DNA of 14,386 nucleotides from Candidatus Micrarchaeia archaeon (lineage in GTDB: Archaea > Micrarchaeota > Micrarchaeia > CABMEP01): contig JAVZXS010000012.1 of assembly GCA_038886535.1 (NCBI GenBank), forward strand, positions 1 to 14,386, written 5' to 3'. The position numbers were made by a program, and so were the translations under genes. The notes below the pieces were generated by a model. The model saw nothing but the letters and a program-made list of their open reading frames with translations, was not told the origin of the DNA and searched no databases. Below, piece by piece: positions 1-14,386 of the stretch (positions within the stretch are counted from its first letter, which is position 1; the number at the start of each line of letters is the position of its first letter).

Positions 1-150
1 TGTATATCCTTTATTAGAAGCCCAATGTAGTAGTGTCATACCATACTCATCTACTACATTTGGATCTGCCCCTAAATTTATTAGTTCTATTACTTTATCT
101 AAATCTCCATTTTTAACAACTTCTAAAAGTCTCTTATCAATATTTCTCAT
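1..150 (-). CDS. Ankyrin-repeat array gene 13, 5' part only (runs off left edge)
   Basis: Not in the ORF track. Manual translation from ATG at 150 gives MRNIDKRLLEVVKNGDLDKVIELINLGADPNVVDEYGMTLLHWASNKGYT, the same N-cap as the other genes. It follows the conserved junction with GGAGG; an in-frame ATG also lies at 162. Confidence 0.93.
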   Translation of the reverse strand, partial: MRNIDKRLLEVVKNGDLDKVIELINLGADPNVVDEYGMTLLHWASNKGYT

Positions 151-172
151 AAATCCCTCCATTATGTTTATA

Positions 173-1675
173 CTAAAATATATATTTTTCCTTTGATTGT
201 TTTTTATCTTTATATTTCTTGTATATCTCTAGATTTTCAGGGCTTAGCATTTTAGTTTCTAGTCTTATTGATATTGAGGTAAAAAAAGTTTGAATTGTTT
301 TTGGTTTATTATCAACTTTTGCTTCGTGTAGTGGCTTTTTCCCTCTATTATTTTTTACATTTATAATATCTGGTGCTACTGTAAGAAGCAAAGAGATTGT
401 TTTTGTGCGACTATTGAAAGAAGCTAGATGCAGTGGTGTTATACTCATAAAATCCTTTACTTTAGCAGTGTCAGGTGCTACTTTAAGAAGCAGTGAGACT
501 ACATTTATGTACCCATTCCAAGAAGCCCAATGTAATGGTATCTTATCACCTGCATCCTTTTCTTTAGCAGTATTAGGAGCTACTTTAAGAAGCAGTAAAA
601 CTGTTTTTGTATGTCCTTTTTCAGAAGCTAAGTGTAGTGGTGTTTTACCATGGTTATCCTTTTCTTCAATAGTGTCAGGGGCTACTTTAAGAAGATGAGA
701 AACGATCTTTGTATGTCCATTCCAAGAAGCCCAGTGTATTGGTATCCAACCATTATTATCCTTTACTTTAGCAGTTTCAGGAGCTACTTCAAGAAGCAGT
801 AAAACTATTTTTATATGCCTATTTTCAGAAGCTAAGTGTAGTGGTGTTTTACCATCGTTATCCTTTTCTTTGGCGGTGTCAGGGGCTACTTTGAGAAACT
901 GTGAAACTATCTCTGTATGTCCTTTTATAGAAGCCAAGTGTAATGGTGTCCAACCATATCTATCTTTTATTTTAGCAGTATCAGGAGCTACTTGAAGAAG
1001 CAGTGAAACTATCTCTGTATGCCCATTTTCAGAAGCCAAGTGTAGTGGTATCCGACCATAGTTAGCCTTTTCTTTAGCAGTGTCAGGAGCTACTTTAAGA
1101 AGCAGTGAAACTATCTCTGTATGTCCCCCCGAAGAAGCATAATGTAGTGGTGTCCAATCATTATTATCCTTTTCTTTAGCAGTGTTAGAAGCTACTTTGA
1201 GAAGCAGTGAGACTACCTCTGTATGTCCTTCCGAAGAAGCCCAGTGTAATGGTGTCCGACCATCTTTATCTTTTTCTTTAGCAGTGTCGGAAGCTACTTG
1301 AAGAAGCAATAATACTACCTCTGGATGTCCCCACGCAGAAGCCAAGTGTAGGGGTGTCCGACCATTATTATCCTTTTCTTTAGCAGTGTTAGAAGCTACT
1401 TTGAGAAGCAGTGAGACTACCTCTGGATGCCCGTTCCGAGAAGCATAGTGTAATGGGGTTTCACCATCGTTATCCTTTTTTTTAGCAGTATCAGGAGCTA
1501 CTCTAAGAAGTAGTGAAACTATTTCTGTATATCCCCCTCTAGAAGCCCAGTGTAGTGGGGTCATACCTTCCTTATCTATTACATTTGGGTCCGCCCCTAA
1601 ATTTATTAGTTCTATTACTTTATCTAAATCTCCATTCTTAACAACTTCTAAAAGTTTCTCATCAATATCTCTCAT
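173..1675 (-). CDS. Ankyrin-repeat array gene 12 (500 aa; 12 internal 34-aa repeats; long tail ending KYIF)
   Basis: ORF 173..1687; start moved to the SD-preceded ATG at 1675. TPLHxASxxGHxxIVSLLL repeats. Length adds up as 38+12x34+54=500. Confidence 0.95.
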   Translation of the reverse strand: MRDIDEKLLEVVKNGDLDKVIELINLGADPNVIDKEGMTPLHWASRGGYTEIVSLLLRVAPDTAKKKDNDGETPLHYASRNGHPEVVSLLLKVASNTAKEKDNNGRTPLHLASAWGHPEVVLLLLQVASDTAKEKDKDGRTPLHWASSEGHTEVVSLLLKVASNTAKEKDNNDWTPLHYASSGGHTEIVSLLLKVAPDTAKEKANYGRIPLHLASENGHTEIVSLLLQVAPDTAKIKDRYGWTPLHLASIKGHTEIVSQFLKVAPDTAKEKDNDGKTPLHLASENRHIKIVLLLLEVAPETAKVKDNNGWIPIHWASWNGHTKIVSHLLKVAPDTIEEKDNHGKTPLHLASEKGHTKTVLLLLKVAPNTAKEKDAGDKIPLHWASWNGYINVVSLLLKVAPDTAKVKDFMSITPLHLASFNSRTKTISLLLTVAPDIINVKNNRGKKPLHEAKVDNKPKTIQTFFTSISIRLETKMLSPENLEIYKKYKDKKQSKEKYIF

Positions 1676-1697
1676 AAATTTCTCCATTATGTTTATA

Positions 1698-2354
1698 TTA
1701 GAATAAATACTTTTTCTTTATGTATTTTTTGTTAATTTTAAACATTTCAGTTTCTAGTTTTATTGATATTGAGGTAAAAAGTGTCTGAATTCTTTTTTTC
1801 TTATTATCTTCTTTTACTTTATATAATGCTGTTTCTTTATTATCATTTTTTACATTTACTGTATCTGGTGCTACTATAAGAAAAAAAGGAATTGTTTTTG
1901 TGCTACCCCACGAACAAGCATAGTGCAGTGGCATCTCATCCGTATTGCTCTTTATTTGAGCAGTATCAGGAGCTACTTTAAGAAGCAGTGAAATTACCTT
2001 TGTATGTCTATTCCAAGCAGCTTCGTGTAGTGGTGTCCAATTATATTCATTCTTTTCTTTAGCAATGTTAGGGGCCATTTTAAGAAGCAGTAAAACTACC
2101 TTCGTATGCCCCTTCCGAGAAGCATAATGTAGTGGTGTCATACCATCGTCATCCTTTTTTTTAACTGTGTTAGGGGCTACTTTAAGAAGATAAGAAACTA
2201 TCTCTGTATACCCCTTTTTGGAAGCCCAGTGTAGTGGAGTCATACCATAGTCATCTACTACATTTGGATTTGCTCCTAAATTTATTAGTTCTATTACTTC
2301 ATCTAAATCACCATTCTTAGTAACTTTTAAAAGTCTCTTATCAATTCTTTTCAT
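1698..2354 (-). CDS. Ankyrin-repeat array gene 11 (218 aa; 4 internal repeats; ends KYLF)
   Basis: ORF track; 38+4x34+44=218. Confidence 0.95.
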   Translation of the reverse strand: MKRIDKRLLKVTKNGDLDEVIELINLGANPNVVDDYGMTPLHWASKKGYTEIVSYLLKVAPNTVKKKDDDGMTPLHYASRKGHTKVVLLLLKMAPNIAKEKNEYNWTPLHEAAWNRHTKVISLLLKVAPDTAQIKSNTDEMPLHYACSWGSTKTIPFFLIVAPDTVNVKNDNKETALYKVKEDNKKKRIQTLFTSISIKLETEMFKINKKYIKKKYLF

Positions 2355-2376
2355 AAATTACTCCATTATGTTTATA

Positions 2377-2931
2377 TTAGAATATATATTTTTTCTCAAT
2401 GTATTTTTCTCTAATTTTTAGTTTTTTAGTTTTTAATTTTATTGATATTGAGGCAAAAAATGTTTGAATTGTTTTTGATTTATTATCTTCTGCTGCTTTG
2501 TGTAGTGGTGTTTTTTTGTCGTTGTTTTTTACATTTACAATATCTGGTGCTACTGTAAGAAGCAAGAAAACTATTTTTGTACGCCCAAAATATGAAACTG
2601 CATGTAGTGGCACCCAACCATATTTATCTTTTTCTTTGACAGTTTCAGTAGCTACTTTAAGTAGTAAAGAAACTATCTCTTTGCGATTATGTAAAGAAGC
2701 CAAGTATAGTGGTGTCCAACCATATTTGTCCTTTACTTTAATAGTTTCAGGAACTACTTTGAGAAGGTAAGAAACTACTTTTATATGCCCATATTCAGAA
2801 GCTAAGTGTAATGGAGTTCTGCCCTCCTTATCTACTACATTCCCATTGGCTCCTAAATTTATTAGTTCTATCACTTTATCTAAATTTCCTTCTTTAGCTA
2901 CTTGTAAAAGTTCGTGATCAATATTTTTCAT
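2377..2931 (-). CDS. Ankyrin-repeat array gene 10 (184 aa; 3 internal repeats; ends KYIF)
   Basis: ORF track; 38+3x34+44=184; SD AGAGG upstream. Confidence 0.95.
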   Translation of the reverse strand: MKNIDHELLQVAKEGNLDKVIELINLGANGNVVDKEGRTPLHLASEYGHIKVVSYLLKVVPETIKVKDKYGWTPLYLASLHNRKEIVSLLLKVATETVKEKDKYGWVPLHAVSYFGRTKIVFLLLTVAPDIVNVKNNDKKTPLHKAAEDNKSKTIQTFFASISIKLKTKKLKIREKYIEKKYIF

Positions 2932-2952
2932 AAATCCTCTGTTATGTTTATA

Positions 2953-3726
2953 TTAGAATATATATTTTTTCCTTATGTATTTTTTGTTAATTTCCTGCAT
3001 TTCAGTTTCTAGTTTTATTGATACTGAGCTAAAAAGAGTTTGAATTCTTTTTTGCAATTTCCAATCTTTTTCTGTTGCATTGTATAATGGTGTTTCTTTA
3101 TACTTATTTTTTGCATTTACTGTGTCTGGTGCTACTGTAAGAAAAAAAGGAATTGTTTCTGCATATCCCAGTCCAGAAGCAAGATGTAGTGGTGTATTAT
3201 TAGAACTATTTTCTTTTTTAGCAGTTTCAGGTGTTATTTTAAGTAATAAGGAAACTATCGCTATAGTACCATATTTAGAAGCATAGTGTATTGCTGTCCA
3301 ACCAGTATAATCTTTTATTTTAACAGTTTCAGGAACTGCTTTGATGAGTAGAAAAACTATTTTTTCATACCTACTCATAAAAGGATTAAAAGCATAATGT
3401 AGTGGTATCATGCCATAAACATCTTTTTTTTTGGCAGTTTCGGGGGCTATTTCAAGAAGCAGTGAAACTATTTTTGTATGCCCATTTTCAGAAGCTAAGT
3501 GTAGCGGTGTCTGACCCTCGTCATCCTCTACTTTAGCAGTATTAGGAACTACTTTAAGAAGCCGTGAAACTATTTTTGTATACCCATTTTCAGAAGCATA
3601 ATGTAGCGGTGTTCTACCCTTCTCATCTACTACATTCGCATTTGCCCCTAAATCTATTAGTTCTATTACTTTATCTAAATCCCCCTCCTCAGCAGCTCGT
3701 AAAAGTTCCTTATCAATATCTCTCAT
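2953..3726 (-). CDS. Ankyrin-repeat array gene 9 (257 aa; 5 internal repeats, one with a 3-aa insertion; ends KYIF)
   Basis: ORF track; ankyrin consensus; insertion in AFNPFMSRY. Confidence 0.95.
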   Translation of the reverse strand: MRDIDKELLRAAEEGDLDKVIELIDLGANANVVDEKGRTPLHYASENGYTKIVSRLLKVVPNTAKVEDDEGQTPLHLASENGHTKIVSLLLEIAPETAKKKDVYGMIPLHYAFNPFMSRYEKIVFLLIKAVPETVKIKDYTGWTAIHYASKYGTIAIVSLLLKITPETAKKENSSNNTPLHLASGLGYAETIPFFLTVAPDTVNAKNKYKETPLYNATEKDWKLQKRIQTLFSSVSIKLETEMQEINKKYIRKKYIF

Positions 3727-3747
3727 AATCCCTCCATTACGTTTATA

Positions 3748-4518
3748 TTAAAATATATATTTTTTTATAATGCGTTTTTCCTTAATTTTTGTTTTTTTGG
3801 TTGCTAATTTTATGGATATTGAGGTAAAAAGTGTTTGAATTTTTTTTATATTTTTAAAATCTGTTACTATGTATAGTGGTGTTTCTTTATAATTATTTTT
3901 TATATTTACTGTGTCTGGTGCTATCGTAAGAAAAAAAGGAATTATATTTATGCCACCACGCCAAGAAGCCCAGTGTAGTGGCACCCAACCATTTTTATCT
4001 TTTCCTTTAACAATTTCAGGAGCTACTTTAAGAAGTAAAGAAATTATTTTTGTATGACCATTTGCAGTAGCACAATGCAACGGCCTCAAACCATCTTTAT
4101 CTTTTTCTTTAGCGGTCTCAGGTGCTACTTTAAGAAATAAAAAAACTATTGCTATATGACCATTCCAAGAAGCCAAGTTTAATGGCGTTTTACCATATTT
4201 ATCCTTTTCTTTAGCAGTTTCAGGTGCTATTTCAAGAAGTAAGGAAACTATCTCAGTATGACCATGTATAGAAGCCCAGTGTAGTGGTGTTCTATCATCT
4301 ACATCCTTTTTTTTAGCCATTTTTTTTACTGTTTCAGGAAGTAATTCCAAAAGATAAGAAACTATTTTTGTATAACCATTTTTAGAAACTAAATGTAATA
4401 GTGTTAATCCCTTATTATCTACTACATTTACATCTGCACCTAAATTTATTAGTTCTATTACTTTATCTAAATCCCCGTTTTCAGTAGCCTTTAAAAGTTC
4501 TTCATCAATATCTCTCAT
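3748..4518 (-). CDS. Ankyrin-repeat array gene 8 (256 aa; 5 internal repeats, one with a 4-aa insertion; ends KYIF)
   Basis: ORF 3748..4530; start moved to ATG 4518 after GGAGG; 38+5x34+4+44=256. Confidence 0.95.
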   Translation of the reverse strand: MRDIDEELLKATENGDLDKVIELINLGADVNVVDNKGLTLLHLVSKNGYTKIVSYLLELLPETVKKMAKKKDVDDRTPLHWASIHGHTEIVSLLLEIAPETAKEKDKYGKTPLNLASWNGHIAIVFLFLKVAPETAKEKDKDGLRPLHCATANGHTKIISLLLKVAPEIVKGKDKNGWVPLHWASWRGGINIIPFFLTIAPDTVNIKNNYKETPLYIVTDFKNIKKIQTLFTSISIKLATKKTKIKEKRIIKKYIF

Positions 4519-4540
4519 AAATTCCTCCATTATGTTTATA

Positions 4541-5401
4541 TTAGAATAAATGCTTTTTCTTTATGTATTTTTTGCTAATTTCCTGTATTTTAGTATTTAG
4601 TTTTATTGATATTGAGGTAAAAAGCATTTGATTTTTTTCTTTTCTATTATTTTTTCTTACTTTATATAATGCTGTTTTTTTATTTTTGTTTTTTACATTT
4701 ACTGTATCTGGTGCTACTGTAAGAAGCATAAGAACCATTTCTGTATGTCCCCCTATAGAAGCCCAGTGTAGTGGTGTCATACCATAGTAAGTCTTTACTT
4801 TAGCAGTGTCAGGAGCTACTTTAAGGAGCAGTGAAACTATCTTTGCATGCCCCCTCCAAGAAGCTTCGTGCAGTGCTGTCCAACCATCGTTATTCTTTTC
4901 TTTAGCAGTTTCAGGGGCTACTTTAAGAAGTTGTGAAACTACCTTTGTATGTCCATCCCAAGAAGCCCAGTGTAGTGGTGTCATACCATCGTTATTCTTT
5001 TCTTTAGCAGTTTCTGGTGCTACTTCAAGAAGCAGTGAAACTATTTCTGTATGCCCTTCGGAAGAAGCATAGTGTAGTGATGTTGAACCAGATTTGCTCT
5101 TTTCTTTAGCAGTTTCAGGAGCTACTTCAAGAAGCAGTGAAACTATCTCTGTATATCCTTCCCAAGAAGCATGATGTAGTAGTGTCCAACCATCATTATC
5201 CTTTACTTTAGCAGTATTAGGTTCTACTTCAAGAAGATAAGAAACTATTCTTGTATGTCCCTTTTTAGAAGCCCAATGTAGTGGTGTTCTACCAAACTCA
5301 TCTATTACATTTGGGTCTGCCCCTAAATTTATTAGTTCTATTACTTTATTTAAATGCCCCTTTTTAGAAGCTTCAAAAAGTTTCTTATCAATGTTTCTCA
5401 T
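4541..5401 (-). CDS. Ankyrin-repeat array gene 7 (286 aa; 6 internal repeats; ends KHLF)
   Basis: ORF track; 38+6x34+44=286. Confidence 0.95.
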   Translation of the reverse strand: MRNIDKKLFEASKKGHLNKVIELINLGADPNVIDEFGRTPLHWASKKGHTRIVSYLLEVEPNTAKVKDNDGWTLLHHASWEGYTEIVSLLLEVAPETAKEKSKSGSTSLHYASSEGHTEIVSLLLEVAPETAKEKNNDGMTPLHWASWDGHTKVVSQLLKVAPETAKEKNNDGWTALHEASWRGHAKIVSLLLKVAPDTAKVKTYYGMTPLHWASIGGHTEMVLMLLTVAPDTVNVKNKNKKTALYKVRKNNRKEKNQMLFTSISIKLNTKIQEISKKYIKKKHLF

Positions 5402-5423
5402 AAATTCCTCTATTATGTTTATA

Positions 5424-6590
5424 TTAGAATATATACTTTTTTACAATGCGTTTTTCCTTAGTTTTTGTTTTTGGAGCTTCTAGTTTTATTGATATTGAGG
5501 TAAAAAGAGTTTGTATTGTTTTTGGTTCTTTATTAACTATTGCTTTGTGTAGTGGCTTTTCTCCTCTATTATTTTTTACATTTACAATATCTGGTGCTAC
5601 TGTAAGAAACAAAGAGATTGTTTTTGTATGATTACTGTAAGAAGCCCAGTATAGTGATGTCTTACCATTTTTATTCTTTACTTTAGCAGTGTCAGATGCT
5701 ACTTTGAGAAGCAGTGAAACTATATCAGTGTGTCCCTTCCAAGAAGCCAAGTGTAATGGGGTATTACCATCTTTATCTTTTTCTTTAGCAGTTTCAGGGA
5801 CTACTTTAAGAAGCAATGAAACTATCTCTATTTTTCCATCCGAAGAAGCCCAGTGTAATGGGGTATAACCATCATTATCCTTTTCTTTAGCAGTTTCAGG
5901 GGCTACTTTGAGAAGCAGTAAGACTATCTCTGTATGTCCCCTCCCAGAAGCCAAGTGTAGTGGCGTTAGACCATAGTAAGACTTTACTTTAGCAGTGTCA
6001 GAGGCTACTTTAAGAAGCAGTGAAACTATATCTGTATACCCCCCCGAAGAAGCATAGTGTAGTGGTGTCCAACCCCTATTATCCTTTTCTTTAGCAGTTT
6101 CAGGGGCTACTTTAAGAAGCAATGAAACTATCTCTATTTTTCCAGCCGAAGAAGCCCAGTGTAATGGGGTATGACCATCTCTATCCTTTTCTTTAGCAGT
6201 TTCAGGGGCTACTTTAATAAGCAGCGAGACTATCTCTGTATATCCCCCCCAAGAAGCCAAGTGTAGTGGTATCCAACCCTCATTATCCTTTTCTTTAGAA
6301 GTTTCAGGGGCTACTTCAAGAAGCAGTGAGACTACCTCAGTATGTCCCCTCCAAGAAGCCAAGTGTAGTGGTGTCCGACCATTCTTATCCTTTCTTTTAG
6401 CAGTGTCAGATGCTACTTTAAGAAGATAAGAAACTATTTTTGTATAGCCATAAACAGTAGCCAAATGTAGTGGGGTCATACCATCTTCATCTACTACATT
6501 CGCATCTGCCCCCAAATTTATTAGTTTTATTACTTTATCTAAATTACCGTTCTCTGCAGCTTTTAAAAGTTCCTCATCAATATCTCTCAT
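5424..6590 (-). CDS. Ankyrin-repeat array gene 6 (388 aa; 9 internal repeats; ends KYIF)
   Basis: ORF 5424..6602; start moved to ATG 6590; 38+9x34+44=388. Confidence 0.95.
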   Translation of the reverse strand: MRDIDEELLKAAENGNLDKVIKLINLGADANVVDEDGMTPLHLATVYGYTKIVSYLLKVASDTAKRKDKNGRTPLHLASWRGHTEVVSLLLEVAPETSKEKDNEGWIPLHLASWGGYTEIVSLLIKVAPETAKEKDRDGHTPLHWASSAGKIEIVSLLLKVAPETAKEKDNRGWTPLHYASSGGYTDIVSLLLKVASDTAKVKSYYGLTPLHLASGRGHTEIVLLLLKVAPETAKEKDNDGYTPLHWASSDGKIEIVSLLLKVVPETAKEKDKDGNTPLHLASWKGHTDIVSLLLKVASDTAKVKNKNGKTSLYWASYSNHTKTISLFLTVAPDIVNVKNNRGEKPLHKAIVNKEPKTIQTLFTSISIKLEAPKTKTKEKRIVKKYIF

Positions 6591-6612
6591 AAATCCCTCC
6601 ATTATGTTTATG

Positions 6613-7794
6613 TTAGAATATATATTTTTTCTCTGGTTGTTTTTTGTTAATTTTCCGCATTTCAGTTTCTAGTTTTATGGATATTGAGGTAAAAAGTGTT
6701 TGAATTCTTTTTTTTCTATTTCTTTCTGTTGCATCACTTTCTATTGCTTTGTATAGTGGTGTTTTATTATAATTATCTTTTACATTTACTGTATCTGGTG
6801 CTACTGTAAGAAGTAAAGAAATTACCTTTGTATTTCCCCCCCAAGAAGCCAAGTGTAGTGGTATCATACCATCGTTATCTTTTATTTGAGCAGTTTTAGG
6901 GGCTACTTTAAGAAGCAGTAAAACTATATTTATGTGTTCTCCCGAAGAAGCATAATGTAGTGGTGTCATACCATAGTTATCTTTTATTTGAGTAATTTCA
7001 GGGGTTATTTTGAGAAGCAGTGAAACTATCTCAGTGTACCCCCCCCAAGAAGCCCAGTGTAGTGGTGTCATACCTTTGTTATCTTTTTCTTTAGCAATGT
7101 CAGGGGCTACTTCAAGAAGTAGTGAAACTACTTTTCTACGTCCATTCCAAGAAGCCAAGTGTAGTGGTGTCCAACCCCTATTATCCTTTTCTTTAGCAGT
7201 TTCAGGGGCTACTTTAAGAAGCATGAAAACTATTTTTGTATATCCTTCTCTAGAAGCAATGTGTAGTGGTGTATGACCATCGTTATCCTTTTCTTTAGCA
7301 GTGTTAGAAGCTACTTTAAGAAGTTGTGAGACTATTTCTGTATGTCCCATCAAAGAAGCCCAGTGCAATGGTGTCATACCTTTGTCATCCTTTTCTTTAG
7401 CAGTTTCAGGGGCTACTTCAAGAAGTTGTAAAACTATTTTTGTATGACCTTCTGCAGAAGCCCAGTGTAGTGGTGTCTTACCCTCGTTATCCTTTTCTTT
7501 AACTGTTTCAGGGGCTACTTCAAGAAGCATGGAAACTATCTCTGTATGTCCCTTCCAAGAAGCAAAATGTAGTGGTGTCATACCATCGTTATCCTTTACT
7601 TTAGCAGTATTAGGGTTTACTTTAAGAAAATAAGAAACTATTTTTGTATGCCCATTTTTAGAAGCCCAGTGTAGTGGAATTCTACCATACTCATCTACTA
7701 CATTTGGATCAGCCCCTAAATTTATTAGTTCTATTACTTTATCTAAATCACCATATACAGCAGCTTCTAAAAGTTTCGCATCAATATCTCTCAT
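6613..7794 (-). CDS. Ankyrin-repeat array gene 5 (393 aa; 9 internal repeats; ends KYIF)
   Basis: ORF track; 38+9x34+49=393. Confidence 0.95.
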   Translation of the reverse strand: MRDIDAKLLEAAVYGDLDKVIELINLGADPNVVDEYGRIPLHWASKNGHTKIVSYFLKVNPNTAKVKDNDGMTPLHFASWKGHTEIVSMLLEVAPETVKEKDNEGKTPLHWASAEGHTKIVLQLLEVAPETAKEKDDKGMTPLHWASLMGHTEIVSQLLKVASNTAKEKDNDGHTPLHIASREGYTKIVFMLLKVAPETAKEKDNRGWTPLHLASWNGRRKVVSLLLEVAPDIAKEKDNKGMTPLHWASWGGYTEIVSLLLKITPEITQIKDNYGMTPLHYASSGEHINIVLLLLKVAPKTAQIKDNDGMIPLHLASWGGNTKVISLLLTVAPDTVNVKDNYNKTPLYKAIESDATERNRKKRIQTLFTSISIKLETEMRKINKKQPEKKYIF

Positions 7795-7816
7795 AAATTA
7801 CTCCATTATATTTATG

Positions 7817-8677
7817 TTAGAATAAATACTTTTTCTTTATGTATTTTTTGCTAATTTCCTTCATTTTAGTTTCTAGTTTTATTGATATTGAGGTAAAAAG
7901 TGTTTGAATTGTTTCTGGGTTATTATAAAATGTTGCTTCACGTAGTGGCTTTTCTCCTCTATTATTTTTTACATTTACAATATCTGGTGTTACTGTAAGA
8001 AACAAAGAGATTGTTTTTGTATGATTACTGTAAGAAGCCCAGTGTAATGGGGTCTCACCATTATTATTTTTTTCTTTAGCAGTATTAGTGGCTACTTTAA
8101 GAAGCTGTAAGACTATTTTTGTATGTTCCCGCAAAGAAGCCAAGTATAGTGGTGTCCTACCCTTGTTATCCTTTACTTTAGCAGTGTCAGGAGCTACTCT
8201 AAGAAGATTGGAGACAATTTCTGTATATCCGTTCAAAGAAGCACGATGCAGTGGTGTCATACCCTCATTATCCTTTTCTTTAGCAGTTTCAGGAGCTACT
8301 TTAAGAAGTTGTGAGACTATCTCTGTATGTCCCTCCCAAGAAGCATGATGTAGTGGTGTCCAACCCCTGTTATTCTTTTCTTTAACAGTTTCAGGAGCTA
8401 CTTTAAGAAGCATGGAAACTATTTCTGTATGTCCTTTTTCAGAAGCTTCGTGTAGCGGTGTCCAACCATAGTTATCCTTTACTTTAGCAGTGTCAGGGGC
8501 TACTCTAAGAAGATAAGAAACTATTTCTGTATATCCCAACCTAGAAGCCCAGTGTAACGGTGTTTTACCCTCCTTATCTACTACATTCGCATCCGCTCCT
8601 GAATTTATTAGTTCTATTACTTTATCTAAATCACCGTATATAGTAGCTTCTAAAAGTTCCTCATCAATATATCTCAT
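7817..8677 (-). CDS. Ankyrin-repeat array gene 4 (286 aa; 6 internal repeats; ends KYLF)
   Basis: ORF 7817..8689; start moved to ATG 8677. Confidence 0.95.
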   Translation of the reverse strand: MRYIDEELLEATIYGDLDKVIELINSGADANVVDKEGKTPLHWASRLGYTEIVSYLLRVAPDTAKVKDNYGWTPLHEASEKGHTEIVSMLLKVAPETVKEKNNRGWTPLHHASWEGHTEIVSQLLKVAPETAKEKDNEGMTPLHRASLNGYTEIVSNLLRVAPDTAKVKDNKGRTPLYLASLREHTKIVLQLLKVATNTAKEKNNNGETPLHWASYSNHTKTISLFLTVTPDIVNVKNNRGEKPLREATFYNNPETIQTLFTSISIKLETKMKEISKKYIKKKYLF

Positions 8678-8699
8678 AAATTCCTCCATTATGTTTATA

Positions 8700-9605
8700 C
8701 TAAAATATATATTTTTCCTTTGATTGTTTTTTATCTTTATATTTCTTGTGTATCTCTAGATTTTCAGTGCTTAGTATTTCAGTTTCTAGTTTTATGGATA
8801 TTGAGGTAAAAAGAGTTTGAATTGTTTCTTTTTTATTACTTTCTCTTGCCTCACTTTCTATTGCTTTGTATAGTGGTGTTTTTTTATACTTACTTTTTAC
8901 ATTTACTGTATCTGGTGCTACTGTAAGAAGGAAAGAGATTGTTTTTGCATGACTATTATAAGAAGCCAAGTATAGTGATGTTATACCCTCGTTATCTTTT
9001 ACTTTAGCGGTTTCGGGGGCTACTTTGAAAAGCAGTAAAATTACCTCTGTATGCCCTGCAAAAGAAACCCAGTGTAGTGGTGCCCGACCACCTCTATCCT
9101 TTTCTTTAGCAGTATCAGATGCTACTTTAAGAAGCATGGAAACTATCTCTATGTGTCCTTCCGAAGAAGCCCAGTGTAGTGGTATCCAACCACTATAATC
9201 CTTTACTTTAGCAGTGTCAGGAACTACTTCAAGAAGTAGTGAGACTATTTCTGTATATCCCAACCGAGAAGCCCAGTGTAGTGGTGTCCAACCATGGATA
9301 TCCTTTTCTCTAGCAGTTTCAGGGGCTACTTCAAGAAGATAAGAAACTACTTTTGTATGTCCCTCTCTAGAAGCATAATGTAGTGGCGTCATACCATCTT
9401 TATCCTTTACTTTAGCAGTGTTAGGGGCTATCTTAAAAAGATAAGAAACTATCTCTGTATGACCTTTTTCAGAAGCTAAGTGTAGTGGTGTCATACCTTT
9501 ATAATTTACTACATTCACATCTGCCCCCAAATTTATTAGTTCTATTACTTCATCTAAATTCCCATCTTCAACAGCCATTAAAAGTTTCCAATCAATATCT
9601 CTCAT
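8700..9605 (-). CDS. Ankyrin-repeat array gene 3 (301 aa; 6 internal repeats; long tail ending KYIF)
   Basis: ORF 8700..9617; start moved to ATG 9605; 38+6x34+59=301. Confidence 0.95.
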   Translation of the reverse strand: MRDIDWKLLMAVEDGNLDEVIELINLGADVNVVNYKGMTPLHLASEKGHTEIVSYLFKIAPNTAKVKDKDGMTPLHYASREGHTKVVSYLLEVAPETAREKDIHGWTPLHWASRLGYTEIVSLLLEVVPDTAKVKDYSGWIPLHWASSEGHIEIVSMLLKVASDTAKEKDRGGRAPLHWVSFAGHTEVILLLFKVAPETAKVKDNEGITSLYLASYNSHAKTISFLLTVAPDTVNVKSKYKKTPLYKAIESEARESNKKETIQTLFTSISIKLETEILSTENLEIHKKYKDKKQSKEKYIF

Positions 9606-9627
9606 AAATCCCACCATTATGTTTATG

Positions 9628-10593
9628 TTAGAATATATATTTTTTCTTTATGTATTTTTTGCTAATTTCCTGTATTTCAGTTTCTAATTTTATTGATATT
9701 GAAGTAAAAAGTGTTTGAATTGTTTCTTTTTTATTACTTTCTCTTGCTTCATATAGTGGTGCTTTTTTATCATTATTTTTTACATTTACAATATCTGGTG
9801 CTACTTCAAGAAGTAAAGAAACTACTTCTGTATATCCATTCCAAAAAGCATAGAGTAGTGGTGTCTGACCATAGATATCCCTTTCTTTAGCAGTATCAGG
9901 AGCTACTTTAAGAAGCTGTGAGACTATTCCTATATATCCATAACTAGAAGCATAATGTAGTGGTGTCATACCATCATCGTTCTTTTCTTTAGCAGTTTCA
10001 GGGGCTACCTTAAGAAGCAGTGGAACTATCTTAGTGTACCCCCCCCAAGAAGCCAAATGTAGTGGGGTCTGACCATCGTTATTTTTTTCTTTAGCAGTTT
10101 TAGGGGCCACTTTAAGAAGCTGTGAAACTATTTTTGTATGCCCCTCCAAACAAGCACTGTGTAGTGGTGTCCAGCCAAAGTTATTTTTTATTTGAGCAGT
10201 TTCAGGGGCTACTTTGAGAAGATAAGAAACTATTTCTGTATAACCTTTCCAAGAAGCCCAGTGTAGTGGTGTCTTACCATCGTTATCCTTTTCTTTAGCA
10301 GTGTCAGGAACTACTTCAAGAAGTAGTGAGACTACCTCTGTATGTCCCATCCAAGAAGCACAATGTAGTGGCGTCATACCATCTTTATCCTTTACTTTAG
10401 CAGTGTTAGGGGCTACCTTAAAAAGATAAGAAACTATCTCTGTATGGCCTTTTTCAGAAGCCCAGTGTAGTGGCGTCATGCCATACTTATCATCTATTAC
10501 ATTCGCATCTGCCCCCAAATTTATTAGTTCTATTACTTTATCTAAATCCCCATTCTTAACAGCTTCTAAAAGTCTCTTATCAATATTTCTCAT
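9628..10593 (-). CDS. Ankyrin-repeat array gene 2 (321 aa; 7 internal repeats; ends KYIF)
   Basis: ORF 9628..10605; start moved to ATG 10593; 39+7x34+44=321. Confidence 0.95.
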   Translation of the reverse strand: MRNIDKRLLEAVKNGDLDKVIELINLGADANVIDDKYGMTPLHWASEKGHTEIVSYLFKVAPNTAKVKDKDGMTPLHCASWMGHTEVVSLLLEVVPDTAKEKDNDGKTPLHWASWKGYTEIVSYLLKVAPETAQIKNNFGWTPLHSACLEGHTKIVSQLLKVAPKTAKEKNNDGQTPLHLASWGGYTKIVPLLLKVAPETAKEKNDDGMTPLHYASSYGYIGIVSQLLKVAPDTAKERDIYGQTPLLYAFWNGYTEVVSLLLEVAPDIVNVKNNDKKAPLYEARESNKKETIQTLFTSISIKLETEIQEISKKYIKKKYIF

Positions 10594-10615
10594 AAATTCC
10601 TCCATTATGTTTATA

Positions 10616-11068
10616 TTAGAATAAATACTTTTTCTTTATGTATTTTTTGCTAATTTCCTGCATTTCAGTTTCTAATTTTATTGATATTGAGGTAAAAAGA
10701 GTTTGAATTGTTTTTGGTTTATTATCAACTATTGTTTTGTATAGTGGTTTTTCTCCTATATTATTTTTTATATTTACAATATTTGGTGCTACTGTAAGAA
10801 ACAAAGAGATTGTTTTTGTACAACTATTGAAAAAAGTATAGTGTAGTGGTATCCAACCGTAGTTATCCTTTACTTTAGCATTGTCAGGGGCTACTCTAAG
10901 AAGATAAGAAACTATTTCTGTATGTCCCCAAAAAGAAGCCCAGTGTAGTGGTGTTCTACCATCCTTATCTACTACATTCGCATCTGCCCCCAAATTTATT
11001 AGTTCTATTACTTTATCTAAATTCCCACTCTTAACAGCTTCTAAAAGTTCCTCATCAATATATCTCAT
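10616..11068 (-). CDS. Ankyrin-repeat array gene 1 (150 aa; 2 internal repeats; ends KYLF)
   Basis: ORF 10616..11080; start moved to ATG 11068; 38+2x34+44=150. Confidence 0.93.
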   Translation of the reverse strand: MRYIDEELLEAVKSGNLDKVIELINLGADANVVDKDGRTPLHWASFWGHTEIVSYLLRVAPDNAKVKDNYGWIPLHYTFFNSCTKTISLFLTVAPNIVNIKNNIGEKPLYKTIVDNKPKTIQTLFTSISIKLETEMQEISKKYIKKKYLF

Positions 11069-11090
11069 AAATTCCTCCATTATGTTTATA

Positions 11091-11268
11091 TTAGAATAAA
11101 TACTTTTTTGTATGTTTTTTAGTCATTTTAATTTTTAATTTTATGGATATTGAGATAGAAATTATTAAAATTGTTCTTTATTTTTTAGTATTGTTTAGTA
11201 TAGTAGTATTTTTTTAGCAATATTTTTGTATTTATGATATTGGGGGCCACTGTATAAAAAATTATTTC
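11091..11268 (-). pseudogene. Decayed 3'-end remnant of an array ankyrin gene
   Basis: Manual translation ending at TAA 11091-11093 gives ...TILIISISISIKLKIKMTKKHTKKYLF*, preceded by an in-frame stop. Another frame further upstream gives IIFYTVAPNIINTK, matching the array's ISLFLTVAPNIVNIK. No N-cap or start codon is present. Confidence 0.8.
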
Positions 11269-11406
11269 TCCCCCCGCCCCCATTAATCAAATCATAATAC
11301 CATAACCATCCCCCCACCTCTTTCAAAGATTACCTTCTCCTACACCTAATACATAATAAATAATAGAAATAACATAACCCCAACTTAAACATACAAAAAC
11401 TATACT

Positions 11407-11435
11407 AACTTATAACTAAAAACAATTTTAGTCAA
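11407..11435 (-). promoter_or_regulatory. Candidate sigma70-type promoter facing the ankyrin array (TTGACT-N17-TAAGTT)
   Basis: Minus-strand -35 TTGACT at 11435-11430, 17-nt spacer, -10 TAAGTT at 11412-11407 retaining TAnnnT. The AT-rich context lowers specificity. Confidence 0.45.
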
Positions 11436-11528
11436 CGCTCTCTCAGTTATTAAAATAAAAAACCTACTTTAAACGAAATGTAATACAGGCATAAATAAAA
11501 ATCATCTTCTAAAAAAAATATATAGAAA

Positions 11529-11552
11529 TATAAACAAAGAGGTGTGTTTATG
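11529..11552 (+). promoter_or_regulatory. RBS of the divergent ankyrin gene inside an inverted repeat (TATAAACA-AAGAGGTG-TGTTTATG)
   Basis: SD-like GAGGTG lies 5 nt before ATG 11550. The arms ATAAACA and TGTTTAT are perfectly complementary. Confidence 0.6.
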
Positions 11553-12110
11553 GGGAATAAAAAGCTAGATGAAGAGCTCATTAGTGCAGTAATGTGGTAT
11601 AGTATTGAAAAAACGGAAGAACTTATAAAATTGGGTGCTAATGTAAATGGAAGAGATGATAATGGCAATACTCCTCTACACTATGCTTGCTGGAAAGGAT
11701 ATATTGAAAAAATTCAGCTACTCTTTAAGAATAAAGCAAATATAAACGCTAGAAACATAGATGGTGATACTCCTCTTCATACAGCATGTCAGTGGGGAAA
11801 GAATAAAGTTGTTAAGTTTCTTATTAAAAATAATGTTAATGTAGATGTTATAAACAAGCAAGGGAATACGCCTCTTTATGAAGCTTGTGATATAGGAGCC
11901 ATTGATATAGTCCGAATACTTCTTGAAAGGAAACCTAATGTAAACGTTAAAAATAAAGAAAATGCTACTCCACTTTACAGAGTTAGTGGATACGTATACA
12001 CGGAACCATTAGTAAGAATTATATTTTCTTGTATAAATTTATTAATACCGACACAAATAAAGAATAAAATAAAAGGAATATCTTTCCACCGCCCAAAATA
12101 TATATTTTAA
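11550..12110 (+). CDS. Divergent ankyrin-repeat protein (186 aa; canonical 33-aa repeats; ends KYIF)
   Basis: ORF 11544..12110; ATG 11550 preferred because of the SD. TPLHYAC, TPLHTAC, TPLYEAC and TPLY occur at 33-aa spacing. The N-cap LDEELISAV...ELIKLGANVN is homologous to the array N-cap. Confidence 0.93.
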   Translation: MGNKKLDEELISAVMWYSIEKTEELIKLGANVNGRDDNGNTPLHYACWKGYIEKIQLLFKNKANINARNIDGDTPLHTACQWGKNKVVKFLIKNNVNVDVINKQGNTPLYEACDIGAIDIVRILLERKPNVNVKNKENATPLYRVSGYVYTEPLVRIIFSCINLLIPTQIKNKIKGISFHRPKYIF

Positions 12111-12134
12111 CCCTCTTGCCTGTAAAACAGATTT

Positions 12135-12273
12135 CTCTCTCTCAACGAATAAATAAATAATTTACAAACATTTTGCCCCCCCCAAGCCCCCTACAATAAA
12201 CCTCCCCCCTCACACCCATAAAATAAAACAACTCTCTCTCAACAAATAAATTCTCTCTCTCTCAATAAATAAA
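12135..12273 (+). repeat. Three dispersed copies of CTCTCTCTCAAYRAATAAA, with poly-C tracts between copies 1 and 2
   Basis: Copies at 12135-12153, 12232-12250 and 12255-12273. Shorter CTCTCTCA cores occur near 11438, 12454 and 12484. Confidence 0.7.
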
Positions 12274-12559
12274 CTAATAACTTTCAAAAAATTACCTTCC
12301 CCCATCTACCTAACAATCCTTTTGCTAATTATATTATACATTAATCTACGAAAAAATCGTTTTTTGGTAAATAATGAGTTTACAATATAGTTTCTACATT
12401 TTACAAAAAACAACAACTAACAACAAAAAAAAACATAATTACCTATTATCAAACTCTCTCTCAGCCCCCCTACCACACCCCATCTCTCTCACACCACCCC
12501 CCTTTACATACCTATGTATACTGCTTACCATACCAGTATTAGAAACTACAACAAACATC

Positions 12560-12605
12560 TTGCTTTTTATTCATTTTTATACTATATTATTATAAAGTAA
12601 GGAGG
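12560..12605 (+). promoter_or_regulatory. Candidate sigma70 promoter (TTGCTT-N17-TATATT) and SD (AAGGAGG) for the 12612 gene
   Basis: -35 at 12560-12565, -10 at 12583-12588, AAGGAGG at 12599-12605, 6 nt before ATG 12612. Confidence 0.6.
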
Positions 12606-12611
12606 AACTTT

Positions 12612-13469
12612 ATGAATTTTGAAGAATTACAACAAAAACTTAAAGATATATTACTACCAACAATATCTGACAATCTAAATAAAGGAATTTACAACTTTCT
12701 AAATTACAAAAAACAAAAAATTAAAGAATTCATTGAAAATCAATTAAAAGAAAAAGTTGAAGAAGTGTTTAGTGAGTATAAACTAGATGATAAAGATAAA
12801 AACGAAGTTTTTGAAATGATTTACGAATTTCTAAGTAGATATTTTAAAGAAGGCGAACTAATACCATTATACTATTCACCATCAAAAAACTATAATTACT
12901 ATATACCAAGCTATAATAAAGAAGATGTAAAACTTTTTTGGCTTAACCAAGAACAATATTATGTAAAAACATATCTGTATCTCAAAGATTATAGTTTTAA
13001 AGTAAAAGACTATAATATTTACTTTAATATCGTTGATTTTGAAAATACCGGCGATATCAACATAATAAAGAAAAACAATGTATTTATCCTAACCAACCTT
13101 GAAACACCTAAAAACTCAATAATAAAAAACGATAAAACACTTATAATTAACTTTAGTTATAGAAAACTGACTGAAGAAGAAGAAAAAAAATATAACTTAG
13201 AAAATAAAAAACCCAAAATAAAACAAGATAAAATAAATGAAATCATATACAAAACTATCTTAGATAACATTGACGATAAACAACTTTCAGAATTGCTTAA
13301 AAAACAAAAAGGCAATAAACCTTTACTTCTAGAACATATTTCAAAGTTTGTAAATAGAAACTTAAAAGATACAAGAGATTACTTTATACATAAAAATTGT
13401 AAACAATTCCTAATGGACCAATTTGACCTATTTGTAAAATCTAAAATTATAGAAAAAATCAATATATAA
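12612..13469 (+). CDS. Protein resembling the N-terminal region of a type III restriction-modification-like adenine DNA methyltransferase; catalytic domain absent
   Basis: Recognised from memory of family motifs: L.GIY.F.NYK, IYEFLSRYFKEGE, IPSYNKEDVKLFWLNQEQYYVKT..Y.KDYSF and TRDYFIHKN.KQFL...FDLFVK. No DPPY/NPPY or FxGxG motif occurs in the 285 aa. Strong SD. Not confirmed by search. Confidence 0.72.
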   Translation: MNFEELQQKLKDILLPTISDNLNKGIYNFLNYKKQKIKEFIENQLKEKVEEVFSEYKLDDKDKNEVFEMIYEFLSRYFKEGELIPLYYSPSKNYNYYIPSYNKEDVKLFWLNQEQYYVKTYLYLKDYSFKVKDYNIYFNIVDFENTGDINIIKKNNVFILTNLETPKNSIIKNDKTLIINFSYRKLTEEEEKKYNLENKKPKIKQDKINEIIYKTILDNIDDKQLSELLKKQKGNKPLLLEHISKFVNRNLKDTRDYFIHKNCKQFLMDQFDLFVKSKIIEKINI

Positions 13470-13527
13470 CAACATACTATACCTCTATTCTAACTAATAC
13501 TATAACTTAAAACATCAAACACCAATC

Positions 13528-14386
13528 ATAAAAACATAACAACAATAAACAAAAATAAAACAATAATAAATTAAAAAAAGTAAAATACATTGATAAGAAA
13601 CAAGAATTATCAAAATTAGTTAACAACAAAAACATAACAATAATAAACAAAAATTCTAAAAACAATAAATAAAGCAACAGTAAATTAAAAAAGTAAATAC
13701 ATTGATAAGAAACAAGAATTGTCAAAACTAGTTGACAATAAAAATACAACAACAACAAACAAAAATAAAAACAATAATAAATTAAAAAAAGTAAAATACA
13801 TTGATAAGAAACAAAAATTGTCAAAACTAGTTAACAATAAAAACATAACAACAACAAACAAAAATAAAACAATAATAAATTAAAAAAAGTAAAATACATT
13901 GATAAGAAACAAGAATTATTAAAACTAGTTAACAATAAAAACATAACAACAACAAACAAAAATAAAACAATAATAAATTAAAAAAAGTAAAATACATTGA
14001 TAAGAAACAAGAATTATTAAAACTAGTTAACAATAAAAATATAACAACAATAAACAAAAATTCTAAAAACAATAAGTAAAATAATAGTAAGTTTAAAAAA
14101 AAGTAAAATACATTGATAAGAAATAAGAATTGTCAAAACTAGTTAACAATAAAAATACAACAATAATAAACAAAAATTCTAAAAACAATAAGTAAAATAA
14201 TAGTAAGTTTAAAAAAAAGTAAAATACATTGATAAGAAATAAGAATTGTCAAAACTAGTTAACAATAAAAATACAACAATAATAAACAAAAATTCTAAAA
14301 ACAATAAGTAAAATAATAGTAAGTTTAAAAAAAAGTAAAATACATTGATAAGAAATAAGAATTGTCAAAACTAGTTAACAATAAAA
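13528..14386. repeat. Non-coding A-rich tandem repeat, at least 8 units of 98-116 bp, running off the right edge
   Basis: Marker CATTGATAAG starts at 13588, 13700, 13799, 13897, 13995, 14111, 14227 and 14343 (spacings 112, 99, 98, 98, 116, 116, 116). Confidence 0.95.

Follow-up and report, generated by a model that had tools for sequence, protein, structure and literature searches.

A stretch of 14,386 nucleotides in assembly GCA_038886535.1 (contig JAVZXS010000012.1, positions 1 to 14,386, filed under Candidatus Micrarchaeia; the whole stretch is called the window here) carries a tandem array of genes for ankyrin (ANK) repeat proteins. The modules of these proteins share one framework and differ at a few sites, which raises the question of what holds the framework constant and what drives those sites apart. 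A preliminary description of the window had proposed diversifying selection on target specificity. The analysis presented here supports diversifying selection at six surface positions of each module, with a ratio of nonsynonymous to synonymous rates (dN/dS) of about 2 to 3, and purifying selection on the scaffold, with dN/dS of about 0.3. The co-oriented, probably co-transcribed array of stand-alone ANK proteins is quite likely to be a repertoire of binders in which the scaffold is constrained and six surface sites are diversified. The contig that contains the window is designated C12 and the second array contig C20; both belong to the same bin (contigs C1 to C40). The family comprises at least 17 paralogues, of which 12 complete genes (numbered 0 to 11) and one cut gene lie in the window and four on C20.

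Module Architecture and Fold

Every protein of the family is assembled in the same order: a 34-residue N-cap, a first module, 0 to 10 mid modules, a last module, a half-repeat C-cap, and a tail. The proteins contain 2 to 12 modules, are 150-500 amino acids (aa) long, and consist of repeats and tail only. First modules carry the signature IVSYLL and last modules the signature TKTISLFLTVAPDIVNVKN. Cutting of the proteins confirmed the count of 74 modules given in the preliminary description of the window; 71 are exactly 34 aa long and three contain 1-4 extra residues. When C20 is included there are 98 modules, 94 of them with 34 residues. The modules with insertions (three in the window, four with C20) were excluded from every column statistic. 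The module consensus is NDGWTPLHWASWNGHTEIVSLLLKVAPDTAKEKD, which corresponds to the previously described consensus moved by two residues. Identity to this consensus is 0.68 overall and 0.72 for the mid modules; it is at least 0.70 in 7 of 16 genes and at least 0.85 in none.

In a Pfam scan of genes 0, 7, and 11, only ANK families exceed the curated cut-offs, and the four weak non-ANK matches of gene 0 are all under them. An AlphaFold2 model of the gene 8 protein, obtained with an alignment of 12 paralogues, has a mean predicted local distance difference test (pLDDT) score of 91.4 and a predicted template modelling score of 0.86, with two helices per module. The model was compared with known structures using Foldseek, which returned a probability of 1.00 for DARPins (designed ankyrin repeat proteins), ankyrin-B, EHMT1, and others. 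For the DARPin 6mol_A, the template modelling score relative to the query is 0.86 and the root-mean-square deviation is 1.2 Å over 259 columns. On the strength of the Pfam matches and the model, the family proteins are ANK repeat proteins with a predicted ANK solenoid fold. The repeat period of 102 nt is equivalent to 34 aa rather than the canonical 33, a variant length that is still within the ANK family. The extra residue resides in the linker, where KVAPETAKEKD of the module aligns with KyGADV-NAqD of the DARPin and a short third helix appears in the model.

Variable Positions of the Module

Shannon entropy was calculated over the 71 window modules of 34 aa. The values for module positions 1, 2, 4, 9, 12, and 13 are 2.50, 2.99, 2.92, 2.42, 3.19, and 3.35 bits, respectively. 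The remaining 28 positions do not exceed 1.97 bits, and the highest among them are positions 21 (1.97), 32 (1.87), 24 (1.79), and 15 (1.76). The distinction drawn in the preliminary description between variable sites (termed x) and a steadier framework is therefore retained, with 2.42-3.35 bits at six positions and at most 1.97 at the others. The variable residues that it listed are all present: W/Y/L/E/H/C/F/I/R after PLH, the pairs RG, RN, AW and so on, and the hairpin sequences NDGM, KYGW, YYGL, and IHGW. In canonical ANK numbering the six sites are positions 2, 3, 5, 10, 13, and 14. Canonical position 33 is nearly fixed, with lysine in 68 of the 71 modules.

In the gene 8 model, module positions 1, 2, and 4 are found in the loop that precedes helix 1 (the inter-repeat turn), and positions 9, 12, and 13 are the fourth, seventh, and eighth residues of helix 1. 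Since the latter three are spaced i, i+3, and i+4, they would fall on one helical face. Helix register and homology support the placement of all six sites on a single face of the modelled solenoid, which is the canonical binding face. When the sequence was aligned to DARPin M_R12 (6mol_A), the six sites coincided with positions that differ among the repeats of the DARPin itself. In DARPins, positions 2, 3, 5, 13, 14, and 33 were reportedly randomised by Binz et al. in 2003. In the ANK-N5C library (PMC4308713), positions 2, 3, 5, 10, and 13 (and also 33) were randomised, and crystal structures reveal that they make up a continuous binding surface in the β-turn and helix 1. The same text identifies positions 2, 3, 5, 10, and 13 as the high-entropy positions of natural ANK repeats (PMC4308713). 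The assignment of the x sites to a binding surface, made previously from the letters of the sequence, is thus in agreement with their location in the turn and helix 1 of the model and with their alignment to the variable positions of 6mol_A and the randomised positions of ANK-N5C.

The residues at the six sites are unevenly distributed. Tryptophan accounts for 81 of 564 residues in the 94 modules (14.4%), compared with 0.9% in the long open reading frames (ORFs) of the bin, a 16-fold enrichment; tyrosine, methionine, asparagine, and arginine are enriched about 2-fold. The six-residue signature is unique in each of the 94 modules (94/94). Variation of the N-cap at equivalent sites had also been described, and this was found to be correct in part. 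Among 12 N-cap sequences, positions 10, 13, and 14 (the counterparts of module positions 9, 12, and 13) vary with 1.90, 1.63, and 2.28 bits, respectively, but the non-equivalent positions 3, 6, 7, 12, and 30 vary as well (1.46-1.95 bits).

Evidence for Diversifying Selection at the Variable Codons

Nonsynonymous change at the six x codons (dN_X) was compared with synonymous change in the 28 framework codons (dS_F). The two sets of codons are interleaved within 102 nt and therefore have the same genealogy. The Nei-Gojobori method over all pairs with Jukes-Cantor correction gave a dN_X/dS_F of 2.02 when applied to the 71 modules of the window. Applied to all 94, it gave 2.07, with a confidence interval of 1.84-2.34 from bootstrapping over modules; dN/dS of the framework in this larger set is 0.46. 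Nearest pairs picked by framework distance gave ratios of 3.1-4.8, which were discarded because such a choice biases dS downwards. Disjoint nearest pairs were instead chosen on half of the framework codons, and dS was taken from the other half. Across 20 random splits, these held-out pairs gave dN_X/dS_F values from 1.5 to 5.0 (mean 2.6).

Codon maximum likelihood was conducted with the GY94+F3X4 model on a fixed IQ-TREE tree, using purpose-written pruning code that matches the log-likelihood of IQ-TREE (-5555). For the class of x codons, alpha is 1.48 and beta is 2.86, a ratio of 1.94, and the likelihood-ratio statistic against alpha = beta is 17.1 (p = 3.5e-5). For the framework, alpha is 0.90 and beta is 0.27 (omega 0.30). 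With a single silent rate for codons 1-13, omega of the x class is 2.77 (likelihood-ratio statistic 83.6, p = 6e-20). At 0.88, silent change in the framework codons that lie among the x sites matches that of codons 14-34 (0.91); a differing genealogy of the N-terminal half is therefore not the source of the excess, and a recombination artefact is disfavoured. A tree built from the framework only gave an omega of approximately 11-21 for the x class, which was treated as an inflated upper bound. Per-site omega values with a shared dS are 1.6, 2.0, 3.3, 5.0, 7.7, and 3.9 at the six sites, with p from 0.008 to 9e-29. The other module sites include a borderline case in position 21 (1.67, p = 0.012) and a nearly neutral one in position 15; the rest are below 0.7. 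The preliminary proposal of diversifying selection is supported by these estimates: dN/dS at the x sites is above 1 when judged against the framework silent rate (2.07, 2.6, and 2.77) and also with the silent rate of the x class itself (1.94).

Several observations weigh against this conclusion. When the silent rate of each site itself is used, p is below 0.05 at only one of the six sites (position 13), and the Nei-Gojobori ratio inside the x codons alone is 0.58; the latter value is based on very few silent sites, as the W and M codons have none. Amino acid differences at the x sites are near saturation, with pN of 0.43-0.53 whatever the framework distance, and for that reason the ratio is a lower bound rather than a measured rate. 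The maximum likelihood tree of 94 sequences of 102 nt is poorly resolved, and since the paralogues recombine, any one tree can only be approximate. ANK repeats in general vary most at these positions (PMC4308713), so that high entropy by itself is unremarkable.

A reading in terms of relaxed constraint only, in which six exposed ANK positions drifted to saturation in old duplicates while gene conversion homogenised the rest, would account for the high entropy of these positions in natural repeats (PMC4308713), the near saturation, the ratio of 0.58 within the x sites, and the single significant site obtained with a free silent rate in the fixed effects likelihood analysis. Neutral sites, however, cannot outpace silent ones, and the x sites have a dN that exceeds the interleaved silent rate 2- to 3-fold. 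Gene conversion would also even out the x codons together with their neighbours. Tryptophan, which has the single codon TGG, makes up 14% of the x residues in a sequence of 32% G+C, compared with 0.9% bin-wide, and this is not a composition expected from drift. Finally, the six-residue signature never recurs among the 94 modules. Relaxed constraint is accordingly judged unlikely, and diversifying selection at the six positions remains the supported conclusion.

DNA contigs from a second study provide a count of strain differences in which 11 of 29 module differences fall in x codons (18% expected, binomial p = 0.008). This count was taken from 40 of 134 differences, the short contigs are possibly cross-mapped paralogues, and it was not relied on.

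Origin of the Diversity

The genes of the array are mosaics. In most of them, which paralogue is nearest depends on whether the 5' part, the last module, or the tail end is compared; for gene 0 it is gene 11 (5' part), gene 6 (last module), and gene 9 (tail end). The nearest neighbour of a module is in the same gene for 13 of 94 modules and in the same positional class for 87 of 94. To account for this pattern, duplication is sufficient when combined with gene conversion or the shuffling of modules and with selection on the six sites.

The confinement of variation to a few codons of a fixed scaffold is also what would be expected if a diversity-generating retroelement or a similar mutator wrote the variable codons. 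A search of the bin for a reverse transcriptase (RVT_1, PF00078) gave no match, a weak negative by itself, since completeness is 88% for the archaeal part of the bin and sampling of the carrier is incomplete; the enzyme may have been missed. Deviation from the column consensus is 0.33 for A, 0.40 for T, 0.54 for G, and 0.64 for C; adenine has the lowest value, and the bias toward adenines envisaged in the preliminary description is not supported. Codons ending in A or G (TGG, AAA, GAA, ATG, and others) constitute 60% of the x codons and cannot be produced by AAY-templated mutagenesis. In addition, silent framework sites differ among the modules, and no two genes are identical over more than 66 nt, which means that there is no pair of template and variable repeats. 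A retroelement is therefore regarded as extremely improbable, the least probable of the explanations considered.

C-Terminal Tail

The tail of the family reads IQTLFTSISIKLETE...KKYIKKKY[IL]F. It is basic, with a net charge of +2 to +8, and its last three residues are hydrophobic; gene 5 ends in HLF instead of Y[IL]F. Of 1291 ORFs of at least 80 aa in the bin, 19 end in Y[IL]F, and 18 of these are ANK genes of C12 and C20. The 18 include three divergent genes with 33-aa repeats, one in the window (11544-12110) and two on C20. In the gene 8 model the tail forms a long helix along which pLDDT drops from 76 to 44. Conservation of the tail across divergent paralogues implies that it has a function. 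Most likely, the basic Y-[IL]-F tail would give all these proteins one shared handle, be it for export, for docking to a single partner, or for localisation.

The three canonical ANK genes just mentioned (window 11544-12110, C20 143-793, and C20 814-2514, all on the plus strand) are otherwise unlike the array family. They end in [KRI]-Y-I-F and contain the motif L-[FL]-x-[ST]-x-I in the C-cap helix.

Many probably co-expressed paralogues that share a tail, predicted with low confidence to be a long helix, could also be envisioned as a structural or self-assembling scaffold such as a coat or matrix, with the variable residues tuning the packing rather than the recognition of cellular or foreign targets. 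Packing interfaces are usually conserved rather than diversified, and the variable residues are located in the canonical ligand groove; a scaffold of this kind is very unlikely.

Layout of the Gene Array

The 12 complete ANK ORFs of the window occupy positions 173-11080 of the minus strand. A thirteenth gene starts at position 150 and leaves the contig. The members of the array in the window, one example spacer, and the neighbouring canonical ANK gene are as follows.

1..150, minus strand: thirteenth family gene, 5' part (first 50 codons, comprising the N-cap and the beginning of the first module); translation MRNIDKRLLEVVKNGDLDKVIELINLGADPNVVDEYGMTLLHWASNKGYT; match with E of 3.1e-16 in the genome search.
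173..1675, minus strand: ANK gene 0, with N-cap, 12 modules, C-cap, and the long tail variant ending KEKYIF; Pfam Ank_2, E of 6.4e-153.
1676..1697, minus strand: example of a 22-nt spacer from stop codon to true start, TAATATAAACATAATGGAG.AATTT.
1698..2354, minus strand: ANK gene 1, 4 modules.
2377..2931, minus strand: ANK gene 2, 3 modules.
2953..3726, minus strand: ANK gene 3, 5 modules, one of 37 aa.
3748..4518, minus strand: ANK gene 4, 5 modules, one of 38 aa.
4541..5401, minus strand: ANK gene 5, 6 modules; tail end KKHLF.
5424..6590, minus strand: ANK gene 6, 9 modules.
6613..7794, minus strand: ANK gene 7, 9 modules; Pfam Ank_2, E of 1.2e-80.
7817..8677, minus strand: ANK gene 8, 6 modules; the protein used for modelling (AlphaFold2, Foldseek).
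8700..9605, minus strand: ANK gene 9, 6 modules; long tail variant whose final 45 nt are those of gene 0.
9628..10593, minus strand: ANK gene 10, 7 modules, one of 35 aa.
10616..11068, minus strand: ANK gene 11, the minimal member, with N-cap, 2 modules, C-cap, and tail; Pfam Ank_2, E of 4.2e-19.
11544..12110, plus strand: divergently oriented canonical 33-aa ANK gene that has the C-cap helix motif and the C-terminal KYIF in common with the family (C-terminus ...FHRPKYIF); Pfam Ank, E of 3.8e-30.

One and the same conserved spacer of 22 nt sets all 12 genes apart. A ribosome-binding motif, GGAG or GAGG, is located 6-8 nt ahead of the second ATG in 10 of 11 spacers, and GGTGG is found in the other. 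In genes 1 and 7 the upstream ATG meets an in-frame TAA after two codons. Together with the spacer motif, this identifies M[RK]xID as the true start. The 150-aa protein of gene 11, which starts with MRYID, has an identical entry (P0121) in a public representative protein library, and that entry was called from the same start.

Within the array, no terminator-like sites were found on the minus strand. This result and the layout suggest that the array is probably co-transcribed as one operon. Matches to a sigma-70-like promoter are fewer in the array than in shuffled sequence and are thus uninformative. Two metatranscriptome runs from a related study contributed 0 reads to the array, at a sampling of only about 3%. 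Hot-spring metagenome DNA contigs from two studies (runs X1 and X3) align to the array, which is therefore not an artefact of a single assembly.

Of the four family members on C20, one lies at the contig end without its N-terminus, in the orientation expected if C20 precedes C12. The cut gene at 1..150 probably continues into this cut gene at the right end of C20. Antisense frames of 86-97 aa (…EAQCSGV…) recur with the ANK modules on the plus strand at 405-698, 2498-2770, 4806-5072, 7010-7276, and 8088-8348. They were rejected as genes, being mirror frames of the ANK repeat.

Composition of the Bin and Probable Carrier

The bin is compositionally bimodal. On the first principal component of tetranucleotide usage (PC1), the five largest contigs, C1-C5, score +0.9 to +1.4 and C23, which contains the archaeal 16S gene of the bin, scores +0.6. 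Twelve contigs with a total of 191,965 bases (C6-C9, C12, C15, C20, C25, C28, C35, C37, and C40) score -3 to -5. The same split was obtained with a 5-mer Markov classifier, which assigned +15.4 and +13.7 to the non-array parts of C12 and +11.2 to the part of C20 that contains a dGTPase and a methylase. In the control, 92 held-out 3-kb pieces of C1 averaged -26.8 with a maximum of -5.1.

The gene content of the other ten of the twelve contigs was scanned; C35 is without an ORF of at least 150 aa. The genes identified are of bacterial mobile-element type. They include an F-type transfer set (TraC/VirB4, TraB, TraE, TraU, TraW, TrbC, TraN, and TraH), secretins, and a VirD4-like coupling protein, and a second VirD4-like gene is present on C31, which is compositionally intermediate. 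Also found were ParA, ParM, a tyrosine recombinase, a podovirus-type capsid, an endolysin, two giant PLxRFG proteins, TnpB, IS607, IS4, SbcCD, topoisomerase III, NrdD, dUTPase, HDOD, and RecT. The TraC of the bin is only 27% identical to known F-type TraC proteins of plasmids, which is uninformative for taxonomy.

Two side observations concern these genes. Each of the two VirD4/TraG-like genes, on C7 (24000-38425) and C31, is followed by an HD-domain gene, and the C7 segment (24000-38425) also contains a secretin, an Ig-repeat (ASH/HYDIN-like) protein, RecT, and an HDOD protein. The giant PLxRFG 'tail-700' ORFs encode 2739 aa (L021, C6, 3650-11866) and 1952 aa (L024, C9, 7785-13640); a podovirus-type capsid, an endolysin, a Cas4-like gene, and an SNF2 helicase are located beside them.

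The array resides among defence-type genes, namely a dGTPase, an N6-methylase, and an ORF resembling a truncated type III methylase. The first two are found on C20.

C20 2771-3988, plus strand: dGTPase, directly upstream of the array part of C20, together with the methylase; PADLOC dGTPase, E of 1.9e-103.
C20 4229-5638, plus strand: N-6 DNA methylase.

The best named homologues of the C20 dGTPase are from Brevinematia, Brevinematales, and Spirochaetia metagenome-assembled genomes, with 54-56% identity over the full length, and the next tier is at 41%. The gene was not found in six genomes of the same genus as the archaeon of the bin. In the window, a 285-aa ORF (12612-13469, plus strand) that has no Pfam match is hit by PADLOC models for type III methyltransferases, which are 816-1057 positions long and match with their N-terminal part. 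From these partial matches, the ORF looks like a truncated methylase that ends just before a tandem repeat. That AT-rich repeat, whose 8.1 copies recur about every 116 bp and match at 90%, extends from 13528 to the contig end at 14386; it was not found on the other contigs of the bin. No contig was found that joins C12 or C20 to either compositional cluster.

On the basis of composition and the dGTPase homologues, the Micrarchaeota archaeon was rejected as the likely carrier of the array. The same features suggest that the carrier is most likely a bacterium (Brevinematia-like, Spirochaetota) or a bacterial mobile element from hot springs that was misbinned with the archaeon. The bin thus mixes an archaeal chromosome with bacterial mobile DNA, and readings that treat all of its contigs as Micrarchaeota are affected.

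A more specific proposal, which is speculative and rather unlikely, can be made for the role of the array in such a carrier. The array would be cargo of a conjugative plasmid, an integrative and conjugative element, or a large phage of a hot-spring bacterium, and would supply a heat-stable library of binders that neutralises varied host or recipient proteins, for example those of defence systems. The invariant basic tail with its K-Y-[IL]-F end would then mark all of the proteins for export or docking, possibly through recognition by VirD4-like coupling proteins that belong to the F-type transfer system of this compositional cluster.

Searches for Relatives

The results of the following searches apply to collections from which the source genome's own records may be hidden. 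Scans of genome, metagenome, and viral contig collections with a pattern from the C-terminal alignment gave no match, nor did scans of genome, metagenome, and viral contigs with a degenerate DNA pattern for the VAP[DE]TAKEKD linker. The tail region had no match among 5.8 billion protein clusters. With a tail profile searched against 1.84 billion representatives, the only match to the full tail was the window's own 150-aa protein. This profile had 162 other matches with E <= 0.001, and 149 of them, among the matches listed, hit mainly the half-repeat part.

Among 40 relatives of the bin, 15 have any match, in all cases to generic ANK genes without the tail. The phage collection yielded generic ANK matches only, mostly from Wolbachia phage WO. 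A search with the whole protein returned generic 33-aa ANK proteins with at most 45% identity among the top matches, and the ESM Atlas returned only ANK look-alikes for the tail. Judged by these searches, the family is an orphan, found in no other genome of the collections searched; the pattern itself is not new in kind. In the literature on ankyrin in DPANN and Micrarchaeota, nothing more specific was found than PMC7414124, which states that Undinarchaeota are without ANK genes and that other symbionts have them.

Comparison with Known Systems

There is a close likeness, in working rather than in ancestry, to the DARPin and ANK-N5C libraries (PMC4308713; PDB 4o60 and 6mol). As in these designed proteins, the array proteins are built from an N-cap, repeats of the same framework, and a C-cap, with diversity at turn and helix-1 positions 2, 3, 5, 13, and 14, and at position 10 as in ANK-N5C. 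Unlike the libraries, the array is natural and has a 34-residue module in which the linker VAPETAKEK, with a short helical turn, takes the place of GADVNA. The libraries also randomise position 33, whereas the array keeps it fixed; residue usage is W-rich rather than even, and there is an extra basic tail.

In fungal NOD-like receptors, conserved ANK repeats with approximately five positively selected positions per repeat, located on the concave face, are reported in PMC4986451 and PMC13449251. As in the array, repeat number varies in these receptors, and paralogues swap repeats with one another (Dyrka et al. 2014, PMC4986451; PMC13449251). The array genes differ in the lack of a NACHT, NB-ARC, or effector domain (ANK families only, in the Pfam scan of genes 0, 7, and 11) and in their prokaryotic gene structure. 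Variation in the array is spread over many small genes rather than over alleles of one receptor. Internal conservation, measured as identity to consensus, is 0.68 overall and 0.72 for mid modules; this is lower than the 2014 threshold of 0.85 for repeats with high internal conservation and close to the Psim of 0.70 used in PMC13449251.

Bodo saltans virus carries 148 ANK copies in tandem, with 4-17 repeats, which PMC5871332 describes as directional arms-race 'accordions'. The array shares with such giant-virus and poxvirus accordions the directional tandem arrangement of ANK paralogues, and with poxvirus ANK proteins the combination of N-terminal ANK repeats and a short conserved C-terminal docking motif. 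In contrast to these viruses, the window is without genes of nucleocytoplasmic large DNA viruses and has 22-nt spacers with Shine-Dalgarno motifs. The tail gave no F-box or PRANC match in the Pfam scan of genes 0, 7, and 11, and the compositional neighbours of the array are bacterial conjugation and tailed-phage genes.

Ankyrin effectors are reportedly used by intracellular bacteria (Legionella, Coxiella, and Rickettsiales), as in the work of Pan et al. in 2008. Like them, the array proteins are stand-alone, probably bacterial, ANK proteins without an N-terminal signal peptide and with information at the C-terminus, and a type IV secretion gene set is present in the compositional cluster of the array, although this is an association only. 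The set is of the F-type conjugation kind and not Dot/Icm, and the effector families, unlike the array, are not tandem arrays of near-identical scaffolds. The array stands apart through its prokaryotic setting, probably in a bacterium or mobile element, and through a module of 34 residues that varies at position 10 but not at 33. A strong tryptophan bias, the private tail, and a formal rate excess over silent sites are further distinguishing features.

Proposed Function and Significance

For the preferred interpretation as a binder repertoire, the following mechanism can be proposed. A rigid solenoid, in which 2-12 modules of 34 residues stand between an N-cap and a C-cap, would present six residues per module in the inter-repeat turn and on the face of the inner helix, the surface through which ankyrin domains and DARPins bind their targets. 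The scaffold would be kept by purifying selection and shuffled among paralogues via recombination or gene conversion. Diversifying selection would push the six positions apart, with a preference for the interface residues W, Y, R, and M, and the outcome would be a different surface on each module and hence on each protein. The shared basic tail would act as the common handle for localisation, export, or docking to a single partner. The surfaces of the paralogues presumably bind different targets, and target specificity, as put forward in the preliminary description, would be the object of selection.

The array is probably a clean natural binder library of prokaryotic origin, with one regular 34-residue module, six selected positions, and at least 98 modules, none of which is repeated among the 94 compared. 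The proteins derive from a hot-spring community and are probably thermostable. They offer a natural test of which surface residues evolution picks on an ANK scaffold, with a W-rich choice and position 10 in place of 33, and a new framework variant for protein engineering. As to the biology of the carrier, the array suggests that a hot-spring bacterium, or its mobile elements, is engaged in an arms race.

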